A stretch of DNA of 64,000 bases from Deltaproteobacteria bacterium (GTDB taxonomy: Bacteria; Desulfobacterota; Binatia; Binatales; Binataceae), in the NCBI GenBank assembly GCA_021817345.1, contig JAKAVC010000099.1, positions 18,338-82,337 of the forward strand, read 5' to 3'. The notes beneath the pieces were generated by a model. It was not told where the DNA came from, searched no databases, and worked only from the letters and a program-made list of their open reading frames with translations. Made by a program: the position numbers and the translations under genes. Positions 4,068 to 43,546 of this stretch are shown in pieces; the stretch's first letter is position 1, and each line of letters opens with the position of its first letter.

Positions 4068-4919
4068 GTGACAGACGAGGAAACGAATCTCCCGACGGAA
4101 TTGCCGGAGGGCGTGGAACTCCCGGACCCCGAGCATATTCCCGACGGCCCCGACGAAGCGCGGATGCCGATAATCGAGCATCTGCGCGAACTCCGCACCC
4201 GCCTGATCCGCGCGCTTATCGCCTTGGTGGTCGGCTTTGCGGTCGCCTATCTGATTTCGGACCAGCTCTTCGCGGCGCTGACCTGGCCGATTCGCGAAGT
4301 CTCGCACGGCAAGGTAATGCTGATCGGAACGGGCGTCGGCGAGGCGTTTTTCACCAAGATAAAGGTGGCGCTGGTCGCCGGGCTGTTCATCGCCAGTCCT
4401 GCGGTATTTTACGAAATCTGGAAGTTCATCGTCCCCGGCCTCTACAAGTCCGAACGGAGGATGGCGGCGCCGTTCATCATCTCGGCGACGATATTCTTCA
4501 TCCTTGGCGGATATTTCTGCTGGGCGGTTGTGTTCAAGGTCGGCTACACGTTCTTCCTGTCGGAGTACGCGAGTATCGGCGTCACCCCCACGATTCGGAT
4601 TAGCGAGTATCTGGCGTTCTCCACGAAGCTGATGCTCGCCTTCGCGCTCACCTTCGAGATGCCCATTTTCGCATACTTCCTGACCCGGCTCGGGATCATC
4701 GACCATCGCATGATGCTGCGCCAGGTCAGCTACGCGGTTCTCGGCATCTTCGTGGTGGCCGCGATGCTGACGCCGCCGGACATGGTCTCGCAGTTCCTGC
4801 TCGCGATACCGCTTTTGCTCCTGTACGCGCTGAGCGTCGGCGTGTCGTATTTGTTCCGGCTGCCTCACGAAGAACCGGCGCCGGCCGCCGAAGGTTCCGA
4901 CGGTCCCGAAGTTTCCTGA
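4068..4919 (+). CDS. tatC: Twin-arginine translocase subunit TatC (copy 1)
   Basis: The sequence MPIIEHLRELRTRLIRALIALVVGFAVAY... has the six-TM TatC architecture and an acidic N-terminal extension. Confidence 0.9.
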   Translation: MTDEETNLPTELPEGVELPDPEHIPDGPDEARMPIIEHLRELRTRLIRALIALVVGFAVAYLISDQLFAALTWPIREVSHGKVMLIGTGVGEAFFTKIKVALVAGLFIASPAVFYEIWKFIVPGLYKSERRMAAPFIISATIFFILGGYFCWAVVFKVGYTFFLSEYASIGVTPTIRISEYLAFSTKLMLAFALTFEMPIFAYFLTRLGIIDHRMMLRQVSYAVLGIFVVAAMLTPPDMVSQFLLAIPLLLLYALSVGVSYLFRLPHEEPAPAAEGSDGPEVS

Positions 4920-5133: not shown

Positions 5134-5973
5134 GTGGAGAACGAGGAAAGCAACCAGACCGAGCCTGCGGAGAACGTCGAGTTCCTCGAAGGCGAGCAAT
5201 CACCCGACGGTCCCGACCTGGCGCGCATGCCGATACTCGAGCATCTGCGCGAACTCCGCACCCGCCTGATCCGCTCGCTTATCGCGCTGGCGGCCGGCTT
5301 TGCGGTCGCCTATGCGATCTCCGATCAACTGTTCGCCGCGCTCACTCTGCCGCTTCGCGAAGTCGCGCACGGCAAGCTGCTCCTTATCGGAACCGGCGTC
5401 GGCGAGGCGTTCTTCACCAAGATAAAAGTGGCGCTGATAGCCGGCCTGTTTATCGCAAGCCCGGCGGTCTTCTACGAGGTCTGGAAATTCATCGCGCCCG
5501 GACTTTACAAGTCCGAGCGCCGGATGGCGGCGCCGTTCATCCTGTTCGCCACGGCTTTCTTCATCCTGGGCGGCTATTTCTGCTGGGCGGTGGTGTTCAA
5601 AGTCGGCTACGCGTTTTTCATCCACGAATACGCCACGATTGGCGTGACGCCCACGATTCGAATCAGCGAATACCTGGCGTTCTCGGCCAAGCTGATGCTC
5701 GCCTTCGGGGTCACGTTCGAGATGCCTATCTTTGCCTACTTCCTGACCCGCCTGGGCATGATCGACCATCGGATGATGGTGCACTACTTCAAATATGCAT
5801 TTCTTGGCATCTTTGTCGTGTCCGCGATTCTGACCCCGCCCGGGTTCGTCGCGCAGTTCCTGCTCGCGATACCACTTCTCCTCCTGTACGCGGTCAGTAT
5901 AGGAGTCGCCTACGTGTTTCGTTTGCCCGAGGGCGAAACCGAACCGGCCGCCTTGGGACCGGGAGTCTCCTGA
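5134..5973 (+). CDS. tatC: Twin-arginine translocase subunit TatC (copy 2, tandem paralog)
   Basis: It is about 85% identical to copy 1 across the TatC core (MPILEHLRELRTRLIRSLIALAAGFAVAY...). The N- and C-terminal tails differ. Confidence 0.9.
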   Translation: MENEESNQTEPAENVEFLEGEQSPDGPDLARMPILEHLRELRTRLIRSLIALAAGFAVAYAISDQLFAALTLPLREVAHGKLLLIGTGVGEAFFTKIKVALIAGLFIASPAVFYEVWKFIAPGLYKSERRMAAPFILFATAFFILGGYFCWAVVFKVGYAFFIHEYATIGVTPTIRISEYLAFSAKLMLAFGVTFEMPIFAYFLTRLGMIDHRMMVHYFKYAFLGIFVVSAILTPPGFVAQFLLAIPLLLLYAVSIGVAYVFRLPEGETEPAALGPGVS

Positions 5974-6007: not shown

Positions 6008-8404
6008 ATGGCCATTATAGATGAGTTTCCGAAGGCATACGGCGCTCCTGGTATTCCCCCTCGGTGGACCCGTAGCGCAAAGGATATCGTCGGCACCGCC
6101 TATTCGACCTCGAGTCGCGTGTGGTTCACGGCTTCCAAGGGCGTCTTGAACGAAATTTATTTCCCGACGATCGACATGCCGCAGGTGCGTGACGTCCAGT
6201 TCCTGGTGACCGACGGCGAAACCTTCTTCCACGAGGAACGCCGCAACCTCGAAAGCCGCACCGAGTATATCGGCGAGTACGGACTTGGCGTGCGCGTCAC
6301 CATGAACGACCCGGAGGGCCGCTACAGCTTCATCAAAGAAGTTATCTCCGACCCGCACAACTCGTGCGTTTTGATCGACGCGCGGCTCGAAGGCGACCCG
6401 GCTTTCCTCGCGCGTCTTCAACTGTACGTGCTGGTCGCCCCGCATCTTGGGGTCGGCGGATGGGGCAACAACGGCAACTTCGCGCGAATCCACGGGCGCG
6501 AGTTCCTGACCGCGCACAAGGAGGGCGTATGGCTGTCGGTCGCGGCCACGGTTCCGTTCGCCAAGCGTTCATGCGGATACGTGGGTACGACCGACGGATG
6601 GCAGGATCTCGCGACCAACTTCAGGCTCGACCATGAATTCGCCTCGGCCACCGACGGCAATATCGCTCTAATCGGCCAGTTGGACCTGAGCGAAACGCGT
6701 TCGTTCACGCTCGGACTTGGCTTCGGCCGCACCCTCCATCGCTCGGTCACAACCCTGTTCCAAGCGCTCGGAATTCCGTTCGGCAACCATCGCGCGCGTT
6801 TCCTTGAGCAATGGAGCCGCGCCTGCATGCATTTCCTGCCGCTCGAGCGCTTTTCCAGCGACGGCGGATGCCTTTACCGGCGAAGCCGCGAACTGTTGCT
6901 CGCGCATGAGGACAAGAGCTACCCGGGCGCGATGATCGCCTCGCTAAGTATCCCGTGGGGCGAGGCCAAGGGCGACGAGGATCTCGGCGGCTACCACCTG
7001 GTATGGACGCGCGACATGGTCAACAGCGCGACCGGCTTGCTTGCCGCCGGCGACCCGCAGACCGGGGTCCGCGCGCTCATCTACCTGGCCTGTTCGCAGA
7101 AGCCCGACGGCGGTTTCCCGCAGAACTTCTGGATCGACGGCGAGCCCTACTGGAACGGGATACAACTCGACGAGGTCGCCTACCCGATAATGCTGGCCTG
7201 GCGGCTGCATCGGTACGAGGCGCTCCGGGAGTTCGACGCGTACCCGATGGTCAGGATGGCGGCGCGCTACCTGATTGAAAACGGCCCGGCCACGCCGCAG
7301 GAACGATGGGAGGAAAACAGCGGCTATTCGCCCTCGACGCTTGCCTCCAATATCGCCGCGCTGATCTGCGCCGCCTCCCTGGCGCTGGAACGCGGCGACG
7401 AGGCAACCGCGCAATATCTCGGCGAATACGCGGATTTCCTCGAGTCGCACGTCGAGGCCTGGACCGTCACCAATAACGGCACGCTGGTTCCCGGCATCAA
7501 GCGCCATTACGTGCGCATCAACCCGGTAGACCCAAACAATCCCGAACCCGACGAAGATCTCGACCGCGCGACGGTCCTTATCCACAACCGACCGCCCGGA
7601 ACGCAATCGGTCTTTCCCGCGGCCGAGATCGTCGATGCTGGTTTTCTCGAACTGGTCCGCTACGGAATCCGCAAGGCCGGCGACCCGCTGATAGAGGACT
7701 CGCTCAAGGTGATCGATGCGGCGCTGCGCGTGGATTTTCCCGCCGGCCCGTGCTGGCGGCGCTACACACACGACGGCTACGGCCAGCGTGACGACGGCGG
7801 ACCGTACCTGGGATGGGGACGGGGACGGCCGTGGCCGCTTCTGACCGGCGAGCGCGGGCATTACGAACTAGCCGCGGGGCGCGACCCGAAGCCTTATATC
7901 CGCGCGATGGAGGCGTTTGCGAATCATACCCAGCTTCTGCCCGAGCAGATCTGGGACCAACCCGACATCCCCGATCAGCTCCTCTTCTATGGGATGCAGA
8001 CCGGAGCGGCGACGCCGCTTATGTGGGCGCACGCGGAGTATATCAAGCTGCTCCGCTCGGCCGCCGACGGCAAAACTTTCGACCTGATTCCCGAAGTCGC
8101 CGAGCGCTACCAGTCGCGTCGGCGGCGCAAGACTATCGAGTTCTGGAAGTTCAACCGCCATGTCCGTTCGCTCGCGCCCGGCACGACGCTCAGAATCCAG
8201 GCCGGGGCGCCGTTCATCCTGCATTGGACGCGCGACGACTGGCGCTCGAGTATCGACACCTCCGCGACCATGACTCCGCTCGGGATCGGCCACGTCGATA
8301 TCGAGGTATCGCGCTCGCAGCGCGCGCCGATCCGCTTCACATTCTACTGGAAGGAAACCGGCCAGTGGCAGAATCAGGATTTCGCCGTCGAAGTCATGGC
8401 ATAG
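6008..8404 (+). CDS. Glycoside hydrolase family 15 (glucoamylase / glucodextranase-like), 798 aa
   Basis: WTRDMVNSATGLL, QKPDGGFPQNFWIDGEPYWNGIQLDEVAYPI and the (alpha/alpha)6 catalytic region are present, with an N-terminal beta-sandwich region. ATG 6008 has an RBS and there is no signal peptide. Confidence 0.85.
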   Translation: MAIIDEFPKAYGAPGIPPRWTRSAKDIVGTAYSTSSRVWFTASKGVLNEIYFPTIDMPQVRDVQFLVTDGETFFHEERRNLESRTEYIGEYGLGVRVTMNDPEGRYSFIKEVISDPHNSCVLIDARLEGDPAFLARLQLYVLVAPHLGVGGWGNNGNFARIHGREFLTAHKEGVWLSVAATVPFAKRSCGYVGTTDGWQDLATNFRLDHEFASATDGNIALIGQLDLSETRSFTLGLGFGRTLHRSVTTLFQALGIPFGNHRARFLEQWSRACMHFLPLERFSSDGGCLYRRSRELLLAHEDKSYPGAMIASLSIPWGEAKGDEDLGGYHLVWTRDMVNSATGLLAAGDPQTGVRALIYLACSQKPDGGFPQNFWIDGEPYWNGIQLDEVAYPIMLAWRLHRYEALREFDAYPMVRMAARYLIENGPATPQERWEENSGYSPSTLASNIAALICAASLALERGDEATAQYLGEYADFLESHVEAWTVTNNGTLVPGIKRHYVRINPVDPNNPEPDEDLDRATVLIHNRPPGTQSVFPAAEIVDAGFLELVRYGIRKAGDPLIEDSLKVIDAALRVDFPAGPCWRRYTHDGYGQRDDGGPYLGWGRGRPWPLLTGERGHYELAAGRDPKPYIRAMEAFANHTQLLPEQIWDQPDIPDQLLFYGMQTGAATPLMWAHAEYIKLLRSAADGKTFDLIPEVAERYQSRRRRKTIEFWKFNRHVRSLAPGTTLRIQAGAPFILHWTRDDWRSSIDTSATMTPLGIGHVDIEVSRSQRAPIRFTFYWKETGQWQNQDFAVEVMA

Positions 8405-8687
8405 CGGCCGAGCCGGACGAGTCGATTTCGCGGATGGAAAATCGTCCGCGCAGCGAATTGAGCATCGCGCGCACCTCGGGCTCGGTTTCGGCGGAAAAGT
8501 ACAGGCACAGGTGATGGCGCTGGGGATCTTCCGTACGGAGCGTCACGAGGTTGTCGTAGGACTCGACGATGGCCTTGAAGAGCGCGATATCGCGGGGCGC
8601 GAGCGCAAAAATGATCTTCGCGATCCCGCCCGGCGGGGCCGGCATTTTGGCGGTGTTCGTGCGGCGCTCGTCCGTTTCCATGCTCAT
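8394..8687 (-). CDS. Small conserved protein, DUF4911-like
   Basis: It is 97 aa. The core IIFALAPRDIALFKAIVESYDNLVTLRT...RAMLNSLRGRF resembles the DUF4911 family from memory. It is divergent from the ArsA-like pair with only 15 bp between the track starts, so an internal start (MPAPPGG at 8645) is possible. Confidence 0.45.
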   Translation of the reverse strand: MSMETDERRTNTAKMPAPPGGIAKIIFALAPRDIALFKAIVESYDNLVTLRTEDPQRHHLCLYFSAETEPEVRAMLNSLRGRFSIREIDSSGSAAMP

Positions 8688-8702
8688 GCTACATTCTAGA
8701 CG

Positions 8703-9590
8703 ATGAAGCTTGCGCGGCTAGTCTTCGTAACCGGCAAGGGCGGCACGGGCAAGAGCACCGTTTCGGCGGCGCTCGCGCTCGGGCTTGCCCGCGGATGCGA
8801 CGTCACGCTCGCCGACCTTGATCAGAAGCTTTCCGCCGCGCGATTGCTCGGTGTCCAGCTCAACGGCGGCGAACCGGTTCGCGCATCCTCGCGCCTTCAA
8901 GTAATGGCGCTCGACCCGCGCCTCGAACTGGAAGCCTTTCTTGAGAGAATCGTGCCGATCAAGGCGATCTCGCGCCGGATGCTGCGCAGCCGCACGTTCG
9001 GCTACGTAAGCGCCGCGCTTCCCGGCCTAGAGGCATTCCTGATGCTCGAACGGCTAAGGCTCATGACGGGAGAAAGCGCCGGGCACGGCGGCTATCTGGT
9101 CGTCGACGCACCCGCCTCCGGCAACGCCCTCGAGATGCTTTCCGTCGCCCGCGGGGTCAAGGGAATCGCGCCGCTCGGCACGCTCAACCGGCTCGCTTCC
9201 GAGGTCGAATCGTTCCTCGGCGATCCCGCGCGGTTCTGCGTGCTCCTGACGGTTACGCCCGAGGAGATGGCGATACGCGAGGCGATCGAGACGGCCAAGC
9301 TTCTCAGGGCGAGGCTCGGCATCAGCTCGATCGGCGCGGTTCTCAACGGCGCCGTCCCTCCATTGTTCGACGCCGCCGAACTCGCGGCGCTCTCCGCGAT
9401 GGAAGAGCACGCGCGGCTCGCGCTCAGGAGAAACGCTCTAGCTGAGCATACGGTCGGCGCGCGAGAGCAACTTGCCGCCGGCGGAGTCCGGGTTGTCGAA
9501 CTCCCGATGCTCTTCAGGCCGGCGCTTGGCAAGGCCGAGCTGAGAAGCCTCGGCCTTCGGCTCGCCGAGGGATTTGCGCGTCATACATGA
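8703..9590 (+). CDS. ArsA/Get3-family P-loop ATPase (half-size), variant P-loop
   Basis: The P-loop VFVTGKGGTGKSTVSAALA is a deviant Walker A of the ArsA/ParA class. It is 295 aa and overlaps the next gene by 4 bp (ATGA). Confidence 0.75.
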   Translation: MKLARLVFVTGKGGTGKSTVSAALALGLARGCDVTLADLDQKLSAARLLGVQLNGGEPVRASSRLQVMALDPRLELEAFLERIVPIKAISRRMLRSRTFGYVSAALPGLEAFLMLERLRLMTGESAGHGGYLVVDAPASGNALEMLSVARGVKGIAPLGTLNRLASEVESFLGDPARFCVLLTVTPEEMAIREAIETAKLLRARLGISSIGAVLNGAVPPLFDAAELAALSAMEEHARLALRRNALAEHTVGAREQLAAGGVRVVELPMLFRPALGKAELRSLGLRLAEGFARHT

Positions 9591-10696
9591 AGCATCCGCT
9601 TGACCTGGATGGGCGCCGGCTCATGATCTGCCTCGGACCCGGCGGCGTCGGCAAAACCACGCTATGCGCGGCGCTTTCGGTGTACGCCGCGGCCGCTGGA
9701 AACGCGGTTGACGTGATGACGGTCGATCCGGCGCCGCGCCTGCTCGACGCGCTCGGCCTCGACCCGGCGCGCGCCGATCTGCAGGAAGTCCCGCTCGACA
9801 GAGTCGTCCCGGAAACCCCCGCGCGCGGCCGGGCGAATGCGCGGCTTCGCGCGCTCCGGCTCGATCCCAAGCATACTTTCGACACGCTGGTGCGCCGCCA
9901 TGCGCCCAGCGCTTCGGCGCGCGACGCGATCCTGGACAACCGCATCTATCAGAACCTGTCGAGCGCGCTCTCCGGCGTGGGCGAATACATGGCGATGGAG
10001 AAGCTTCTCGATCTCGTCGCCGAGCGCACCACTGATCTGGTCGTGATCGACACGCCGCCCGCCGCCCAGGCGCTGGATTTCCTGGACGCGCCGCGCCGGC
10101 TTCTCGACCTGCTCAACTCGCGCGCGCTCTCGCTGCTCGCAAGCCCGCGCGGCCTGATGCGCGGAGGTCTCAGGATGTTCGACATGGCGGCGCGCGCGGT
10201 GCTGAGCGCCTTCGATCGGGTCACCGGACTTCATCTGCTCGCCGACGTGCAGTCGTTCGTCACCAGTTTCGAGGGAATGTACGCGGGATTCGCCGAACGC
10301 GCTGAAATCGCCGGGCAATTGCTGCGCGCGCCGGAAACGATGGTGGTGCTGGTCACGGCGCCCGAGTCGGAGCGCCTGGAGCAGACGCGGGAATTCGCTC
10401 GCGCCCTTGCGGAGTCGGGACTCGGAGTTGACGCGCTGGTGGTGAATCGCGTGATGCCGCGAATGCCGAAGGCTGCGGAAATCGAGAGCGCCCGGATTCC
10501 GGCCGCTCTAAAGCGCAAGCTCGCGCGCAATCTCAAGGATTTCTCGGCGCTCAAGGCACGCGAGGAGCGCGCGCTTGCGAAACTGAAGACCGATCTCCCG
10601 GCGGATGTGCGTATAATGGTCGCGCCGGATCTCGGGCGCGAGCCGCGCTCGCTGGCGGATCTCCTTGAGATTGCCCGTCGGCTCGAAACGCGCTGA
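9587..10696 (+). CDS. ArsA/Get3-family P-loop ATPase (half-size), canonical P-loop
   Basis: LMICLGPGGVGKTTLCAALS, DTPPAAQALDFLDAP and VVLVTAPESERLEQTRE are ArsA signature blocks. It is 369 aa. Confidence 0.8.
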   Translation: MKHPLDLDGRRLMICLGPGGVGKTTLCAALSVYAAAAGNAVDVMTVDPAPRLLDALGLDPARADLQEVPLDRVVPETPARGRANARLRALRLDPKHTFDTLVRRHAPSASARDAILDNRIYQNLSSALSGVGEYMAMEKLLDLVAERTTDLVVIDTPPAAQALDFLDAPRRLLDLLNSRALSLLASPRGLMRGGLRMFDMAARAVLSAFDRVTGLHLLADVQSFVTSFEGMYAGFAERAEIAGQLLRAPETMVVLVTAPESERLEQTREFARALAESGLGVDALVVNRVMPRMPKAAEIESARIPAALKRKLARNLKDFSALKAREERALAKLKTDLPADVRIMVAPDLGREPRSLADLLEIARRLETR

Positions 10697-10701
10697 CGGG
10701 G

Positions 10702-11064
10702 CTACTGCGTGCCGCCCGCGCCGCGCCGTCGCGCCCCGGCCTTCGGCGCGGGCTTCGTCTTGGGCGCTTCCCTGGCGATGAGCCGGTCCACCTTGATGCT
10801 AAGGTTGAGGAGCTGGCTGCTCAGATGGTCGATTCGAGCCTTGAGTTCGCGAACGTCCTTCTTGGACGGGATATTGACGAAGTCGAGCACGGTCTCGACA
10901 TTGCGATCGAAGCTGCGCTTGTTTTCCATGAAGCGCTCGCCCGCACGGGCCATCCCCTTGCGCAGGCGTTCGTTGCTCATGACCTCGTTGAAGAAGCTCG
11001 AAATCCCCTCTTCGCTCATCTGCCTGAGTTTGGAAACCAGGCTGCCCGCGTCGCGTCTTGCCAT
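10702..11064 (-). CDS. Phasin / PHA granule-associated protein family (TIGR01837-like) with basic Ala/Lys/Pro tail
   Basis: NVETVLDFVNIPSKKDVRELKARIDHLSSQL matches the phasin family core. The C-terminal tail KTKPAPKAGARRRG resembles the histone-like tail of PhaF-type proteins. Confidence 0.6.
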   Translation of the reverse strand: MARRDAGSLVSKLRQMSEEGISSFFNEVMSNERLRKGMARAGERFMENKRSFDRNVETVLDFVNIPSKKDVRELKARIDHLSSQLLNLSIKVDRLIAREAPKTKPAPKAGARRRGAGGTQ

Positions 11065-11099
11065 GGTTCAAACTATATATATTTGACGCCGCTGAGACC

Positions 11100-11390
11100 A
11101 TGAACACGATGGCAACCGTGCTGGGCTTCATGTCGGGTTTCGCCCTGATGGGGTATCATCAGGGGCCGCTCGACCTGATCGCGACTTCGCTCGCAATCGA
11201 CGCGACGCTGGCGCCCTTGACCGCGATCATCGCCTCACGCCACGGCCGCAGCACGGCGCTGTGGGCCATACTCGGCTTTGCCTTTGGAATGTGGGCGCTT
11301 GCCGTCATCCTTATCGCGACGCGCCGCTCCGAACCGCCCTACCCTCCACCGTCGCCGCATCGCTCGTCGCCGCCTTCCGATGCCGCCTGA
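11100..11390 (+). CDS. Hypothetical small membrane protein (2-3 TM)
   Basis: MNTMATVLGFMSGFALMGY...ALWAILGFAFGMWALAVILIA has a hydrophobic profile and a Pro-rich tail. Its 3' end overlaps the converging hydrolase gene by about 80 nt, so it is uncertain. Confidence 0.3.
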   Translation: MNTMATVLGFMSGFALMGYHQGPLDLIATSLAIDATLAPLTAIIASRHGRSTALWAILGFAFGMWALAVILIATRRSEPPYPPPSPHRSSPPSDAA

Positions 11391-12510
11391 GCCATCTGAG
11401 CGCGGGCGCATACACCCTGGCTTCGGCTTTCGTTCCGCTTAGCACGTCCAGATGACCCCATCCGGGAAGATTCGTGACGGTTACGTCGCGGCTTGCGGTC
11501 GAATGCGCCGACTCCGCCACCATCGCGGGCCATCCCGGCGCTATATTGCTGCTGCTGAAGGCGATTACCGGGATCTTCGACGCGTGGAGCCGGGCGAGCC
11601 GCGCGGGGGTGAACGGGTTTTCGGTATCCTGCACGGCCGGCCAGTAGCGATCGTAGGTCGCAAGCACCCGCGCAAGCACCTCCACGTTGGAGAATCCGCC
11701 CTGGGGATTGGCAAGACCGCCGTGCCCGCCGAAACCGGCCGAATGGTACAACACGAATTCCAGGTTCTCCCGCGCGGTCTTGAATTTCGCCAGCGGCGCG
11801 GGTCCGTCGGGATCCTTGATTACGCGCTCAAGAAGCGCCTTTCGCTTCTCCCAGGTAAGATGGCGTCCGCCAAGGTCGTCGGCGTACCGCTCAGGCGCCG
11901 GACGCGAGGGTCGGCGTGGGATGAATCCGTCGAGCGCGATTAGCCCCTCGACGCGCTCCGGGTATATCGACGCGTAGAGATACTCGAACTCGACGCCACG
12001 GCTGAATCCCGCAACGAAGATCTTCGCCTGCCCGGTTTCCCGCCGGATAAAATTCGCCGCCGCCGCGATATCCGAGACGAAGAGTTCGCTCGTCCATCCC
12101 CGAAGCTCCGCGAGCTGCGCCATCGGCGTCCCGGGCGGGATGAAGTGAGTGCGATAGTCCATCGTCCATACGTCCACGCCGTTCGCCGCCAGATACAGCG
12201 GGAACGAGTAGCGCGGGTCGTCGGGCGCAACCTCGCCGTTCATGTTGGTGCCGGGAAGAAAGAGCACCACGATTGCCGGATGACGCGGCGCGGCCGCGCC
12301 ATGATAGAGATGATGAAGCCCGATTCGGTCGAATTGCGACGGTCCGCGTGTCGCAACGAAATACGTTTCGCGGACATCGGGCGCCTTCGCAAACGTTCGC
12401 GGCCTGCCTACCTCCGAAAATCCCGACGCCCACGCGGGTACGGCCCAAAGCGCCGCCACAATCGCAAGCGCGCTCAATCGTGCCACGAGGGAAATGTCTT
12501 TGCGCCACAT
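11311..12510 (-). CDS. Secreted alpha/beta-hydrolase (lipase/esterase-like, GFSRG nucleophile elbow)
   Basis: A signal peptide MWRKDISLVARLSALAIVAALWAVPAWASG is present. The GxSxG motif appears in FVAGFSRGVEF. Confidence 0.7.
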   Translation of the reverse strand: MWRKDISLVARLSALAIVAALWAVPAWASGFSEVGRPRTFAKAPDVRETYFVATRGPSQFDRIGLHHLYHGAAAPRHPAIVVLFLPGTNMNGEVAPDDPRYSFPLYLAANGVDVWTMDYRTHFIPPGTPMAQLAELRGWTSELFVSDIAAAANFIRRETGQAKIFVAGFSRGVEFEYLYASIYPERVEGLIALDGFIPRRPSRPAPERYADDLGGRHLTWEKRKALLERVIKDPDGPAPLAKFKTARENLEFVLYHSAGFGGHGGLANPQGGFSNVEVLARVLATYDRYWPAVQDTENPFTPARLARLHASKIPVIAFSSSNIAPGWPAMVAESAHSTASRDVTVTNLPGWGHLDVLSGTKAEARVYAPALRWLRRHRKAATSDAATVEGRAVRSGASR

Positions 12511-38354: not shown

Positions 38355-39272
38355 CTAACTGATTGATTCGCCGTTTTCAACGCGCCGCGACACCAGGAAC
38401 GCCGAGCCCATCGCGGCGAACTTCCGCTCGCGCGCACGGCGAAGCTCGGCCGGAGCGAGCTTCATGAGCCGCTCCAGATGGCGTCTTATCGCGTTGCCCA
38501 GGGTGTGCGCGGCCTGCTCGGGCGCGGTATGGGCGCCGCCCTCGGGCTCGGTTACGATCTCGTCAACCACGCCGAGCGCGAGCAGGTCGGGCGCGGACAG
38601 TTTCAGGACTTCGGCCGCGCGCGTCACGTTTTCCTCGGTCGCTTCGCGCCACAGAATCGCCGCGCATCCTTCGGGCGTTATTACCGAATAGCAGGCGTTC
38701 TCCTGGATCAGCACCGTATTGGCGACACCGAGCGCGAGCGCGCCGCCCGAGCCGCCCTCGCCTATCACGCATGCGACGACCGGGACGCCAAGCCGCACCA
38801 TCGCCTCGAGGTTATGCGCTATCGCCTCGGCCTGGCCGCGTTCCTCGGCGCCCACGCCCGGCTCCGCGCCCTGGGTGTCGATAAAAGTGATGAGCGGAAG
38901 GCCGAAACGGTCGGCCAGCTCGTAAACCCGCGCCGCCTTGCGATAGCCCTCGGGATGCGGCTTGCCGAAGTTGCGCCGGATACGCTCGGCGGTCGAACGG
39001 CCGCGCTGCTGGCCGACGATCGCGACCGGAGTGCGGCCGAGATGCGCAAGTCCGGCGACGATCGCGCCGTCGTCGCCGTAGCGGCGATCGCCGTGAATTT
39101 CGAAGAAATCCTTGAACAAATAATTGACGTAATCGAGCGTCTGCGGACGCGCGGGATTTCTTGCAAGCCGCACCCGCTCGATGGCGCTCGGAGCGGCGGG
39201 CGATTGCGCCGCCCCCCGATGCGATACGGGATCGGCGTGGCGTTCCTTATGATTTCGCGCTTTTGCGGCCAT
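38355..39272 (-). CDS. accA: Acetyl-CoA carboxylase carboxyltransferase subunit alpha
   Basis: ARNPARPQTLDYVNYLF...PLITFIDTQGAEPGVGAEERGQAEAIA. Confidence 0.9.
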   Translation of the reverse strand: MAAKARNHKERHADPVSHRGAAQSPAAPSAIERVRLARNPARPQTLDYVNYLFKDFFEIHGDRRYGDDGAIVAGLAHLGRTPVAIVGQQRGRSTAERIRRNFGKPHPEGYRKAARVYELADRFGLPLITFIDTQGAEPGVGAEERGQAEAIAHNLEAMVRLGVPVVACVIGEGGSGGALALGVANTVLIQENACYSVITPEGCAAILWREATEENVTRAAEVLKLSAPDLLALGVVDEIVTEPEGGAHTAPEQAAHTLGNAIRRHLERLMKLAPAELRRARERKFAAMGSAFLVSRRVENGESIS

Positions 39273-39278
39273 TTCGCT

Positions 39279-40277
39279 TCAGTTCCTTTCCATCGACGGG
39301 GCGGCGAAGAATTCCTCGAATGCACAAGCGGCGCGTTCGCGCGCCTGCTTGTCCTCGACCCACACGACCTCCGGCTCGCGCCGAAACCAGGTGAGCTGGC
39401 GCTTGGCAAGCCGCCGGCTCTCGCGCTTCGCGGCTTCGACCGCCTCTTGAAGTTCCATCTCGCCGCGGACAAAAGCCGCGACCTCGCGGTATCCGATCGT
39501 GCTGAGCGGAGGACGATCGGGATTGTAGCCGCGCGCGAGCAGGGCGCGCACCTCGTCCACCAGTCCCGCTTCGAGCATCGCGTCAAAGCGCCGTTCGATA
39601 GCCTCGTACAGGCGTTTTCGCTCGACGTCGATTCCCACCGTCAGCGTCTCGTACTCGCCCGCGGCGAAGCGATGGCGCTCCTGATGGACGCTTATGGGGA
39701 CTCCGGTCAGCCGGTAAACTTCGAGGGCGCGGGTGATCCGGTAAAGATCGTTGCGCTGGATACGCGACGCGGCCACGGCGTCGACCTCGGCGAGCCGGTC
39801 GTGCAGGAAGCCGATTCCGCGCTCGGCCGCAAGCGCCTTAAGTTCGCGCCTGAGTTCAGGCGAGGCCGGCGGCCCGCTGAAAATCCCTTCGCGCAGCACG
39901 CGCAGATAAAGCCCGCTTCCGCCGACAACCAGGATTCGCCTGCCACGCCCGGCGATATCCGCTATCGCCTCGCGCGCCATCGCAACGAACGCGGCCACGT
40001 CGACCGGCTCGTCCGGCGAGCGAACGTCTATAAGATGATGCCTCACGCGGCGGCGCTCTTCGGGCGAGGGCTTCGCCGTTCCGATATCCATCCCGCGGTA
40101 GAGCTGGCGCGAGTCGGCATTCACGATTTCGGCGCCGATTCGCTCCGCCACGTCGAGCGCAAGCGCGGTTTTGCCCGAGCCGGTCGGGCCCACGATGAAT
40201 CCCACGCGAAGTCGCGCCCCTGCGCCCGCACGCTCGCGGGCCGCGCCGGGTTCCGCCGTCGCCAGAGACCCTTTCAC
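39279..40277 (-). CDS. miaA: tRNA dimethylallyltransferase
   Basis: GPTGSGKTALALDVAERIGAEIVNADSRQLYRGMDIGTAKPS. Its stop overlaps the mutL start region. Confidence 0.85.
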   Translation of the reverse strand: MKGSLATAEPGAARERAGAGARLRVGFIVGPTGSGKTALALDVAERIGAEIVNADSRQLYRGMDIGTAKPSPEERRRVRHHLIDVRSPDEPVDVAAFVAMAREAIADIAGRGRRILVVGGSGLYLRVLREGIFSGPPASPELRRELKALAAERGIGFLHDRLAEVDAVAASRIQRNDLYRITRALEVYRLTGVPISVHQERHRFAAGEYETLTVGIDVERKRLYEAIERRFDAMLEAGLVDEVRALLARGYNPDRPPLSTIGYREVAAFVRGEMELQEAVEAAKRESRRLAKRQLTWFRREPEVVWVEDKQARERAACAFEEFFAAPSMERN

Positions 40278-42151
40278 CGCCGGAACATCCGTTCGATCTG
40301 TCCGCGTGCGAACCTGATGTGGACCGGGCGGCCGTGCGGGCAGTTGGTCTTGAACTCGGTGCGGTCGAGTTGCGCGAGCAGTTCGCGCATCTCGCGCTCC
40401 TCAAGCGCGCGGCCGACTCTGACCGAACCGTGGCAGGCCATCTGCTTCAGGAGATCCTCGAACGCGCCGTCGCGTCCGGGACGAAACCCGCTCTCGCCCA
40501 TGCCGTCGATCATATCAGATAGCAGGCGCGCGCCGCCTTCGGCCGCGAAGACCGCGGGTACTCCCTTGAGCACCAGAGTTGCCGGACCGAACGGTTCGAC
40601 GTCGAAGCCGATCGCGTGCAACTCCGAAAGCGAAGCCTGAACCGCCGAGGCGCGCGCCGGGTTGAGTTCCACCGTAACCGGCGCGAGCATCGCCTGGACC
40701 TGGATTCCGCCGTTTTTGAACTCCGCGCGAAGCTTTTCGAACGTCACCCGCTCGTGCGCCGCATGCTGATCAACCAGCAGTATGCCGTCCTCGTCTTCGA
40801 GCGCGATATAGCCGGCGAAGACCTGTCCAAGTATCCGAAGCTCGGAATAAACCGGAATGGCGCGCTCGCGCGGCGAATCGAGCTCTGGACGATTCGCGTA
40901 GCCGAGATTGAGCGGCCGTTGGCTCGCAAACGTGGCGGAGGGCGAATCGGCGACCAGCCGAAGCGGCCGGTCCACGGCGTCGACGGTATCTCCCGTCGGC
41001 CGATACGCGGTGGCCTCAGGCGGCCTCGGAGCTTCGGATTGAGCCGCTACCGCGCTTGCGCCCTGAGCGGCGCCGGCCGTATCGGGCTCGAGTGCCGACC
41101 CGGACGCGGCGGGCGCCGACCCGCCTGACAACGACGGGCGCGACTCGCGCCGCGAGGTCTGGTCGGCAAGCCGCTCGCGAAGGGCGTGATAGACCACCTC
41201 GAACAACGCGCCGGGATTTCGGAACCGGACCTCGGTCTTCATCGGATGAACGTTCACATCGACATCCTCATGGCGGATTTCGACGAACAGGAAGACCGCG
41301 GGATGGCGTCCGCGCGGGATTGTGGTCTCGTAGGCCTGCGCGATCGCGCGCGCGAGCATCTTGTCCCGCACCCATCGCCCGTTGACGAACGCGAAGATCA
41401 TCCGCGCGCTCGCGAACGACTCCTGGCTCGTTATCGCAAACCCGCTCACCCTGATTCCCGGGCGCGACGCCTCAAACGGCAGCATCGCGGCCGCAAGCTT
41501 CGGCCCGAACACCTGGCGGATGCGTTCGAGCGAATTGCTCGCGCGGGTCAGCGAGAGAAGTTCGCGCCCGTCGGCGGTGAGCGTAAACGAAATCGAATGG
41601 TTGGCGAGCGCGAGCCGCTGTATCACTTCGGCCACCGCGCTCTTCTCGGCCGCCTCGCTCTTCATGAACTTGAGCCGGGCGGGAGTGTTGAAGAAAAGGT
41701 CGCGCGCCTCGATTCGGGTGCCCGCCGCGATCGCGCACGCCCGCTCCTCCTGGATATCACCGCCGCTCAGCAGCAGCTCGACGCCGCCTGGATCTTCAGG
41801 ACGGCGGGTCTTGAGCGCGAGATGCGACACGCTTGCGATCGAGGCCAAGGCCTCGCCGCGAAAGCCGAGCGTGCGGATCGCAACCAGGTCCGAAGCGCCG
41901 CGAATCTTCGAGGTCGCGTGACGCCTGACCGAGAGAATCGCGTCTTCGCGGCCCATCCCGCATCCGTCGTCAACCACCGAGATGAGGCCGAGGCCGCCGC
42001 GCTCGATCTCGACCGCAATCGAACGCGAGCCGGCGTCGAGCGAATTCTCGACCAGTTCCTTGACCGCGGAGGCGGGACGCTCCACGACTTCGCCCGCGGC
42101 AATCTGGCTTGCGACCTGCTCGGGCAGAATGTGGATGAATCGCTCAGCCAT
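40274..42151 (-). CDS. mutL: DNA mismatch repair protein MutL
   Basis: The GHKL ATPase N-terminus is IHILPEQVASQIAAGEVVERPASAVKELVENSLDAGS, followed by the C-terminal dimerisation domain. The start was chosen at MAERFIHIL (ATG 42151). Confidence 0.9.
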   Translation of the reverse strand: MAERFIHILPEQVASQIAAGEVVERPASAVKELVENSLDAGSRSIAVEIERGGLGLISVVDDGCGMGREDAILSVRRHATSKIRGASDLVAIRTLGFRGEALASIASVSHLALKTRRPEDPGGVELLLSGGDIQEERACAIAAGTRIEARDLFFNTPARLKFMKSEAAEKSAVAEVIQRLALANHSISFTLTADGRELLSLTRASNSLERIRQVFGPKLAAAMLPFEASRPGIRVSGFAITSQESFASARMIFAFVNGRWVRDKMLARAIAQAYETTIPRGRHPAVFLFVEIRHEDVDVNVHPMKTEVRFRNPGALFEVVYHALRERLADQTSRRESRPSLSGGSAPAASGSALEPDTAGAAQGASAVAAQSEAPRPPEATAYRPTGDTVDAVDRPLRLVADSPSATFASQRPLNLGYANRPELDSPRERAIPVYSELRILGQVFAGYIALEDEDGILLVDQHAAHERVTFEKLRAEFKNGGIQVQAMLAPVTVELNPARASAVQASLSELHAIGFDVEPFGPATLVLKGVPAVFAAEGGARLLSDMIDGMGESGFRPGRDGAFEDLLKQMACHGSVRVGRALEEREMRELLAQLDRTEFKTNCPHGRPVHIRFARGQIERMFRR

Positions 42152-42307
42152 CGTGGCGCGCCTGCTCGGATAGACAATGCAGCCTTCGGGCGTGATACTC
42201 AAGCGTTCCGGGGCGCGCGGCCGGATCGGGTTTGGGGCGTTTCGTGAGCCGGACACCGGCCGAAATGGAATCAATCGGGGTTCTGCGAGACGCGGAGTTT
42301 CCTAACG

Positions 42308-43546
42308 ATGAAGAACGGGTTGGTTGCGATGCTGGTCGCGGCGGCGGCGCTTGCGATTCTGGCGTCGTCGGCTGCGGTTGCCGGCGAGATCCGGATTGGA
42401 GTCGGTTCGGTCGGCCCGATCTCGCCCGAGGGCGAATACCGGATACAGCGGGTGGTCGGATCGATTCCCAATATCGACGTGGTGCCTATCGTGCCGCCCG
42501 GCGGAATCGATGCGTGCGTAAAGAGGTTCGTCGCGGGCGAGGCGGACGACAGGCTCGATGGGGTGCTGGTCGTCAGCGTGCCGACGGGATCGTTCAAGGC
42601 GGTGCGCGGCAGCAGGGAGGCCACCTTCAGCGGGACCTACCGAATCTGGCTGCTCAACCTGTCAACGCTTGAGGAAGACAGCCATGAATTCACCTTCCAG
42701 GACGAGGAGCCGGTGGTGAGCGGACTCTCGGCGGTCTTCGCGATGCCGGCCGACCTGCTCTCGGAGCGCTCGGGGCACGGCAGGCTCGTTTCGAGCAATG
42801 TCTACCAGGCCTACGAATCAATTCAGTCGCGGGTTGAAGGAAAAATGGTCGCCGCAACCAGGCTCTATCTCGCGACCTCGCCAATCCGGCAGATTGGACC
42901 GCTCAATGCGCTCGAATGCGCCCATAGGCTGGTCGAACGCGGAGACGCCGAGACCGCGATGGCGGTGTTCAAGAGCATGGGCGTCGATAATCCGCAGGTG
43001 AAGGCGATGATGGCAAGGGCGCGCGAGAAGCTGCTGCGCGCCGAGGCGCAAAAGCTGCTCGGCCAGAGCCTGGGCGCGCTCGCAGGCGGCAATCCCGAGC
43101 AGGCGCGCACGCTCGTCGAGGCGTATGCCAAGGCGCCAGCCGCCGATCCGTCGCAGGCACAGGCGGTGCGAGAGGCGCTCGCGTCTTTCTCGCCGCCCGC
43201 CGCGAAGACCTCGCTCGATACGCTGCTCAAACACGACGTTCCCGCCCTAGACCACGCCGCGTTCGTCGCGATGATCGAACAAATATTCAGCGACGGGACC
43301 GGAACCAGGGCTCCCATCGTGCAAACCGGCGCCTCGCAGGTCAGCGTGGAGGACGGCGGAGCGCCGAGCGGCCTCAAAACCCAGCTTGACGCCTACGCGC
43401 ACGCGATTGGAGAAAGCGCTCGGCTGATGAGCCTTAGATGCGGCTGCGCGGCGACCGCCGTCCTGACGGGTCAGGAGGCCGGGCAACCGCTGCTGAGGGC
43501 GCGCTTCCAATCCTCTTTCAAGAGGCCTGAGGTCGGGCTACCCTAG
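42308..43546 (+). CDS. Secreted hypothetical protein (signal peptide, helical Ala-rich C-terminal half)
   Basis: A signal peptide MKNGLVAMLVAAAALAILASSAAVAGE is present. It is 412 aa and I recognise no catalytic motif. Confidence 0.5.
   Translation: MKNGLVAMLVAAAALAILASSAAVAGEIRIGVGSVGPISPEGEYRIQRVVGSIPNIDVVPIVPPGGIDACVKRFVAGEADDRLDGVLVVSVPTGSFKAVRGSREATFSGTYRIWLLNLSTLEEDSHEFTFQDEEPVVSGLSAVFAMPADLLSERSGHGRLVSSNVYQAYESIQSRVEGKMVAATRLYLATSPIRQIGPLNALECAHRLVERGDAETAMAVFKSMGVDNPQVKAMMARAREKLLRAEAQKLLGQSLGALAGGNPEQARTLVEAYAKAPAADPSQAQAVREALASFSPPAAKTSLDTLLKHDVPALDHAAFVAMIEQIFSDGTGTRAPIVQTGASQVSVEDGGAPSGLKTQLDAYAHAIGESARLMSLRCGCAATAVLTGQEAGQPLLRARFQSSFKRPEVGLP

Follow-up and report, generated by a model that had tools for sequence, protein, structure and literature searches.

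A BagAB-like pair of half-size ArsA/Get3-fold ATPases with a divergent DUF4911 gene in the uncultured phylum Binatota

BagA and BagB are half-size ATPases of the Get3/ArsA fold, a poorly understood type first described in Mycobacterium tuberculosis. To our knowledge, BagAB is among the few bacterial systems of this fold for which both genetics and a crystal structure are available. The locus described here lies in a 64-kb stretch of DNA (64,000 nucleotides, hereafter the window) from contig JAKAVC010000099.1 of assembly GCA_021817345.1, positions 18,338 to 82,337, deposited as Deltaproteobacteria bacterium. Its closest relatives are Candidatus Binataceae and 'delta proteobacterium' metagenome-assembled genomes of the phylum Binatota. 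It holds two overlapping ATPase genes and, divergent from them, a small gene encoding a DUF4911 protein. We consider that this is probably the Binatota version of BagA/BagB, a heterodimeric ATPase of the SIMIBI class with putatively asymmetric sites, a predicted leaderless mRNA and DUF4911 as a candidate accessory.

BagA and BagB (Rv3679/Rv3680) have been co-crystallised, as chains A and B of PDB entries 6BS3, 6BS4 and 6BS5. As cited in one paper, M. tuberculosis that has lost bagAB is more sensitive to nitric oxide and to toxicity derived from glycerol, and bagAB insertions in M. smegmatis confer citrate tolerance; the same paper cites a link to methylglyoxal and a title in which the mycobacterial proteins are studied as 'Get3 homologues' (PMC10597346). 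Another paper cites enhanced streptomycin survival of bagAB mutants (PMC12216072). Two other relatives serve for comparison. ArsA (E. coli R773; PDB 1F48) is a fused polypeptide with two non-equivalent nucleotide-binding halves, DTAPTGH motifs and a three-cysteine metalloid site, encoded in an operon with arsB, arsD and arsR. Get3/TRC40 is a zinc-bridged (CxxC) homodimer with equivalent sites and helical client-binding subdomains, which opens and closes with ATP and has Get1/2 and Get4/5 as partners.

The core of the Binatota locus consists of the following features, given in nucleotides (nt) of the window with protein lengths in amino acids (aa):

8394-8687, minus strand: DUF4911 gene, 97 aa by the longest open reading frame (ORF), or 83 aa from a Met15 start (ATG at 8643-8645)
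8689-8699, both strands: predicted promoter-like near-palindrome CTACATTCTAG, conserved across Binatota loci
8703-9590, plus strand: ATPase 1 gene, a BagA-like half-size ArsA/Get3-fold ATPase, 295 aa
9587-9590, plus strand: ATGA start/stop overlap from the ORF calls, with the ATPase 2 ATG on the ATPase 1 TGA
9587-10696, plus strand: ATPase 2 gene, a BagB-like half-size ArsA/Get3-fold ATPase, 369 aa

A sequence-only reading of the window had proposed a DUF4911-like gene divergent from two ATGA-overlapping half-size ArsA-like ORFs of 295 and 369 aa, and the coordinates and Pfam matches confirm this arrangement. The two ATPase ORFs are in different reading frames and therefore encode two separate polypeptides. 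Both match PF02374 ArsA_ATPase (53.2 bits for ATPase 1, 85.1 bits for ATPase 2), and the small ORF is a member of PF16256 DUF4911 (53.6 bits, cutoff 29.3). Among NCBIfam models, the top match is BagA for ATPase 1 (NF053622, 77.6 bits) and BagB for ATPase 2 (NF053621, 248.4 bits, full length). Against the PDB, ATPase 2 finds chain B of 6BS3/6BS4/6BS5 (Rv3680, E=7.9e-53) and ATPase 1 finds chain A of the same entries (Rv3679, E=2.5e-12), although the strongest plain match of ATPase 1 is E. coli ArsA, which scores slightly better than BagA (E=2.4e-17). By BLASTP, ATPase 2 is 40% identical to BagB over 292 aa and ATPase 1 is 27% identical to BagA over 236 aa.

It is the P-loop and switch II motifs that settle which subunit is which. 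In ATPase 1 the P-loop GKGGTGKST occupies residues 11-19 (nt 8733-8759), with the signature lysine at Lys12 and the P-loop lysine at Lys17, and its context VTGKGGTGKST is identical to that of BagA when aligned with chain A of 6BS3. The start of this protein is secure, as an ATG lies exactly 10 codons ahead of GKGG in almost every locus. In ATPase 2 the P-loop GPGGVGKTT occupies residues 17-25 (nt 9635-9661) and Pro18 replaces the signature lysine; the context reads LGPGGVGKTT against CGAGGVGKTT in BagB, which has an alanine at this position. Both P-loop sequences are thus as the sequence-only reading had given them. The switch II motif is VVDAPASG in ATPase 1 against VVDAPPTG in BagA, and DTPPAAQALDFLDAP in ATPase 2 against DTPPSRNALDFLDAP in BagB. 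The subunit-specific motifs are therefore all present in the alignments to the two 6BS3 chains: GKGGTGKST and DAPxxG of the A type, and a lysine-less P-loop with DTPPxxxALDFLDAP of the B type. The switch I aspartate is kept in both subunits, as Asp40 in LADLD of ATPase 1 and as Asp47 in the canonical TVDPA of ATPase 2, whereas BagA has a glutamate at the position in subunit A. At the place taken in Get3 by the client-binding subdomain, both proteins also have helical insertions.

In a neighbour-joining tree with 100 bootstraps, the ATPase 1 proteins of Binatota group with BagA (71% support) and the ATPase 2 proteins with BagB (89%), and the ArsA halves, which form the only outgroup, fall outside both groups. 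On these alignments, ATPase 1 is likely a BagA-type and ATPase 2 a BagB-type subunit, orthologous to the distant BagA and BagB; because outgroup sampling in the tree is thin, we rate orthology as likely, short of proven.

ATPases of this family share a deviant Walker A motif with the consensus GKGGxGK[ST][ST], the first lysine of which is called the signature lysine. As is established for ATPases of the MinD, Soj, NifH and Get3 types, this lysine acts in trans, extending over the dimer to the nucleotide of the partner. The sequence-only reading had taken the first P-loop of our pair as unusual and the second as canonical, and here the comparison with relatives reverses the picture. No catalytic residue of the deviant Walker A motif KGGxGK[ST] is missing from the P-loop of ATPase 1, whose Thr and Ser changes are conservative and the very signature of BagA; it is the second P-loop that lacks the signature lysine. 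GKGG is present in all 51 readable relatives of ATPase 1, and a lysine at the signature position in none of the 51 relatives of ATPase 2 (46 Pro, 3 Thr, 2 Ala). Judged from these sequences, the asymmetry is real and ancient.

If the signature lysine works as in the relatives named above, then only the ATPase 2 site would receive a trans-lysine, because only ATPase 1 owns one (Lys12). With this lysine, its canonical GK[T] and Asp47, the ATPase 2 site would probably be a fully equipped catalytic site, and the ATPase 1 site, which would bind nucleotide and receive no trans-lysine, probably a slow or regulatory one. The outcome would be one consensus and one degenerate site, comparable to the unequal halves of ArsA. 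That the pair forms an obligate heterodimer with non-equivalent sites, as had been suggested for it, is very probable by virtue of its likely orthology to the BagA and BagB chains of 6BS3-5.

The best reading of the pair is thus an asymmetric heterodimeric ATPase of the chaperone or switch type, and a possible course of events can be outlined. Transcription of the operon would start at a conserved promoter and yield a leaderless mRNA; the -10 box of this promoter overlaps another on the opposite strand, which faces DUF4911. Both ATPase genes would share a transcript, and the ATGA overlap would couple their translation and so give subunits in a 1:1 ratio; a 4-base-pair (bp) start/stop overlap is possible in about 43 of 50 related pairs, with a gap of 19-34 bp in its place in one subclade. 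The subunits would dimerise across their nucleotide sites, and the helical subdomains, closing and opening under the drive of ATP, would work on a client other than arsenite and, on present evidence, other than a tail-anchored protein of the Get3 type. By analogy with the mycobacterial phenotypes, the function is probably related to stress protection or to the envelope and its lipids. DUF4911, as a small ACT/ferredoxin-like domain, would be a co-regulated accessory specific to Binatota, possibly an adaptor or regulator of the ATPase.

We considered a link to methylglyoxal, given the glycerol sensitivity of bagAB mutants, and rejected it because the pattern of glyoxalases is too sporadic. Glyoxalase-family genes flank the ATPase pair only in L003 (1-324) and L037 (2986-3852), in both cases next to ATPase 2, and lie about 3 kb from DUF4911 in L006, L061 and L062; methylglyoxal synthase occurs only in L006 and L007. 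In L006, which lacks the ATPases, the glyoxalase and methylglyoxal synthase genes (9056-9505 and 10201-10662) are 3-4 kb from DUF4911.

The three core genes occur together in most of the Binatota loci. A scan of one genome per species gave 56 loci, all from Binatota, and in 52 of these DUF4911 is directly divergent from the ATPase 1-ATPase 2 pair. The triad is contiguous in 52/52, never interrupted, and its proteins are 45-83% identical to those of the window. It is kept with entirely different flanks in loci L010, L037, L047, L058, L004 and L064, and in look-ups anchored on the ATPases DUF4911 was in place in three cases out of three, with a different gene beyond it each time. The genes on either side are less constant: a gene of the GH15 family adjoins DUF4911 in only 13 of 49 loci, and a phasin-like gene adjoins ATPase 2 in 26 of 46 evaluable loci, being displaced in 12 and absent in 8. 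The phasin-like gene is a frequent but dispensable neighbour, loosely linked, and belongs to the context rather than to the core. The small ORF, for its part, is a real gene with 110 homologues. Homologues and recurrence together show that the arrangement is not accidental. Because the neighbourhood is conserved and the small ORF has homologues, two doubts that the sequence-only reading had itself raised, a triad not conserved in related genomes and a spurious ORF, fall away.

The architecture itself is a known one. In Binatota and in mycobacteria alike, adjacent half-size genes stand in the order A then B with a 4-bp overlap, the P-loop of A is identical, B lacks the signature lysine, the switch II types match and a small gene is divergent upstream. 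In the mycobacterial locus L148, a 53-aa gene is divergent from bagA, bagA and bagB overlap by 4 bp, and whiB follows; a -10-like TAGCAT stands 3 nt ahead of the annotated bagA ATG there. Because the BagAB architecture shares both the 4-bp overlap and the small divergent gene, the pair is neither an unexplained oddity nor a new type. Differences remain between the two groups beyond the low identity (27% for A, 40% for B) and the distance between Binatota and Actinobacteria. Neighbours of the whiB or ponA type are missing here, and the small divergent gene encodes DUF4911 here and a DUF4177-like protein in mycobacteria (L148 3744-3905, minus strand, 24.6 bits with a cutoff of 25), where a gene of the YjgF/RidA family comes after it. 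The DUF4177 and DUF4911 profiles show no similarity to each other (hhalign probability 0.3%).

The DUF4911 protein belongs to a family without literature that we know of. Its homologues share an almost invariant core, IALFKAIVESYDNLxTLRTEDP, without conserved cysteines. The predicted core has a ferredoxin/ACT-like beta-alpha-beta-beta-alpha-beta fold (AlphaFold predicted local distance difference test about 90 for residues 21-88), preceded by a disordered N-terminal tail. Structure comparison of the model returned generic fold neighbours only, and no solved structure matching DUF4911 by sequence was found. A profile search collected about 30 Binatota-type clusters and about 400 distant clusters, set apart by a gap in E-values; an E-x-Y...T core motif is common to the whole family, and the Binatota proteins form a distinct subfamily with the extra disordered tail. 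One protein, P0260 (1792 aa), matches profile positions 23-41 nine times and may be a repeat protein or an artefact.

In 80 distant metagenome loci (L068-L147), no ArsA-type gene was found within 6 kb of DUF4911. The gene there has the adenylosuccinate lyase gene purB upstream in 63/80 and a MiaB-like radical-SAM gene downstream in 56/80, all on the same strand, an arrangement that is a possible clue to the ancestral role of the family; recJ is found further upstream of the purB-DUF4911-miaB-like array in 31/80. This context, together with the Binatota loci that keep DUF4911 without ATPases, argues that the basic function of DUF4911 is independent of the ATPases. The association of DUF4911 with the ATPases is a lineage-specific Binatota innovation.

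It is conceivable, if rather unlikely, that BagAB-type ATPases are generally three-part modules with a small alpha/beta partner divergent from the A subunit (DUF4911 for Binatota, a DUF4177-like protein for Actinobacteria), acting as an adaptor or ligand-sensing regulator in the way of ArsD with ArsA or Get4/5 with Get3. For DUF4911 the parallel, a small protein working with an ArsA/Get3-fold ATPase, would be one of function only, as it has no sequence or specific fold similarity to ArsD or Get4/5.

The gap between DUF4911 and ATPase 1 contains a compact control element. A generic sigma-70 scan of the gap gave nothing; the element emerged from the alignment of upstream regions from 46 loci, which revealed a conserved GGTTTACTG-N17-CTA[C/G]ATTCTAG-CCG-ATG. 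The consensus CTA[C/G]ATTCTAG ends 3 nt ahead of the ATPase 1 ATG, and in the 64-kb window the near-palindrome is unique, with 0.01 matches expected by chance. Its components recur as follows:

-10 hexamer TA[C/G/A]ATT with its end exactly 7 nt ahead of the ATPase 1 ATG: 33 of 46 loci
-35-like box at a spacing of 16-18 nt: 34 of 46 loci
opposite-strand TAGAAT: 34 of 46 loci
Shine-Dalgarno sequence within 20 nt of the ATPase 1 ATG: 1 of 46 loci

On the top strand of the window, the -10 hexamer TACATT (8690-8695) ends 7 nt ahead of the ATPase 1 ATG and is preceded by TGn, as in an extended -10, instead of a -35 box. On the bottom strand, TAGAAT (8698-8693) ends 5 nt ahead of the longest-ORF ATG of DUF4911, so that the -10 boxes overlap in facing orientations. 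From this layout we predict that the ATPase mRNA is leaderless and that the divergent promoters overlap, RNA polymerase or a bound regulator controlling both units; since the facing boxes overlap, the two transcription units would share one control point. The sequence-only reading had expected overlapping divergent promoters, and the conserved near-palindromic -10 element agrees with it. The gap of 15 bp that it gave holds for the longest DUF4911 ORF; a start at Met15 widens it to 57 bp. In the window, ATGs lie 40, 38 and 26 codons ahead of VESYDNL; homologues mostly start 16 or 26-28 codons ahead, to which Met15 corresponds. In the ATPase-less loci the near-palindrome is absent upstream of DUF4911, and it therefore belongs to the ATPase operon.

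Several points weigh against the interpretation offered here. The scores of 77.6 and 248.4 bits fall short of the equivalog cutoffs of BagA (400) and BagB (521); plain pairwise comparison puts ATPase 1 equally close to the ArsA halves and to BagA; and the tree that separates them is thinly sampled, with ArsA as its only outgroup. All triad loci belong to one class, and shared ancestry contributes to their conservation. DUF4911 occurs without the ATPase pair in 4 of the 56 Binatota genome loci (L059-L062), in L006 and L007, and in all 80 of the distant loci. Heterodimerisation, the asymmetry of the sites, leaderless transcription and contact between DUF4911 and the ATPases are, moreover, things that we infer. 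The last three of these sets of loci are also what gives substance to the alternative that we take most seriously, namely that the pair is BagAB-like and DUF4911 an unrelated housekeeping gene, their adjacency being inherited Binatota synteny that was perhaps frozen by the shared compact promoter region. The family-wide E-x-Y...T core, which suggests a conserved function independent of the ATPases, and the near-palindrome, which tracks the ATPase operon and not DUF4911, fit this explanation as well. Yet the genes have stayed adjacent while their proteins diverged to about 45-50% identity and both flanks changed repeatedly, and the phasin-like and GH15 genes were lost far more often; the overlapping -10 boxes would couple expression of both units; and the Binatota DUF4911 proteins stand apart as a subfamily behind the E-value gap. 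We regard such passive synteny as quite possible, if somewhat short of probable.

Other explanations concern the ATPases themselves. That the pair is a bacterial equivalent of Get3, a cytosolic chaperone-ATPase taking tail-anchored membrane proteins by their hydrophobic C-terminal anchors and handing them to the membrane, with DUF4911 as a loading factor like Get4/5, would agree with its fold family, with the helical insertions in both subunits at the position of the client-binding subdomain and with the study of the mycobacterial proteins under the name of Get3 homologues. We hold it to be improbable, as neither ATPase has a CxxC motif for the zinc bridge, the scores against TIGR00345 GET3/ArsA/TRC40 (48.6 and 70.2 bits) do not reach the cutoff of 135, the pair is of the heterodimer and not the homodimer type, the scanned neighbourhood shows neither a receptor nor a tail-anchored candidate, and PMC10597346 and PMC12216072 mention no tail-anchored client of BagAB. 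An arsenite or antimonite pump subunit split into two polypeptides might be suspected from the best Pfam family, the strongest plain PDB match of ATPase 1 and the likeness to ArsA in fold, deviant Walker A family and non-equivalent halves. This is effectively refuted, in line with the non-arsenite role that had been suggested from the sequence: no arsB/acr3, arsC, arsD or arsR was found in the related loci or among the 46 of 49 heuristically called genes of the window covered by the Pfam scan; in both proteins switch II is without the DTAPTGH histidine (VVDAPASGN, VIDTPPAAQ); and no cysteine stands at the positions aligned to ArsA Cys113, Cys172 and Cys422, the only cysteines being at positions 32 and 179 of ATPase 1 and 15 and 27 of ATPase 2. 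The scores against arsen_driv_ArsA (30.8 and 43.3 bits) are also far below its cutoff of 650. The sequence-only reading had further thought of a granule or compartment function. The pair might then act with the phasin-like protein on a storage granule, for instance in the positioning or remodelling of polyhydroxyalkanoate (PHA) or lipid granules like ParA/MinD relatives. The phasin-like gene does lie 5 bp downstream of ATPase 2, is near the pair in 38/46 loci and stays beside DUF4911 when the ATPases are missing. However, its phasin scores are marginal (PF05597, 29.1 bits with a cutoff of 28.8; TIGR01837, 31.3 with a cutoff of 94.7), it is absent or displaced in 20/46 loci whereas the triad always stays whole, there is no PHA synthase, as the hydrolase next to it matches PhaC at only 19.7 bits (cutoff 365), and mycobacterial bagAB has no phasin neighbour. 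The suggestion thus has little in its favour, and we judge it very unlikely.

The genes surrounding the triad in the window are the following:

4068-4919 and 5134-5973, plus strand: tatC genes, two in tandem, with proteins that are 79% identical
6008-8404, plus strand: GH15 glucodextranase gene, by Pfam
10702-11064, minus strand: phasin-like coiled-coil gene, 120 aa, convergent with ATPase 2 across a gap of 5 bp
11311-12510, minus strand: alpha/beta-hydrolase gene, 399 aa, with a signal-peptide-like N-terminus by eye

The GH15 and DUF4911 genes are convergent, with 11 nt shared at their 3' ends (8394-8404), as in the gene calls of L001. At the position of the tandem tatC genes, related Binatota loci have a single tatC plus tatA. 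The alpha/beta-hydrolase accompanies the phasin-like gene in most Binatota loci, and its 19.7-bit score reflects a faint similarity to PhaC-III. Between these two genes lies a small ORF (11058-11390, plus strand, 110 aa) of hydrophobic, membrane-embedded look by eye, for which no Pfam match was found; unannotated ORFs of 76-96 aa occupy its position in L001 and L150-L153. Further flanking genes, assigned by Pfam, encode a luciferase-like oxidoreductase, MlaD and APH. Elsewhere in the window, four consecutive ORFs (38478-43546, plus strand; 720, 170, 186 and 412 aa) have a high GC content at third codon positions and no Pfam match at E<=1e-5, and no tRNA or Rfam match was found in the 64 kb.

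In the ATPase-less loci L006, L007 and L059-L062, DUF4911 comes directly after a phasin-like gene of its own strand, and in L006, L007, L059, L061 and L062 tatC follows on the opposite strand. The arrangement resembles what a clean insertion or excision of the pair between the phasin-like gene and DUF4911 would leave.

What is known in this locus is the BagAB architecture; what is new is a distant example of it in a new phylum, with a new and tightly linked small partner gene. The accurate annotation of the pair is 'BagAB-like' rather than 'ArsA family' or 'anion-transporting ATPase', which refines current understanding and does not overturn it. The split into BagA and BagB with a one-sided signature lysine is ancient, and its presence in an unrelated uncultured phylum argues for a lysine asymmetry that is functionally essential. 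The locus also predicts a compact, leaderless, bidirectional control region and gives DUF4911 its first testable association. If BagAB-type ATPases were indeed three-part modules, Binatota would have taken over for this role a protein whose gene is found elsewhere with purB and a miaB-like gene, and DUF4911 would be a first handle on the BagAB client. Binatota provide a second, independent gene neighbourhood in which to seek the partners of BagAB.

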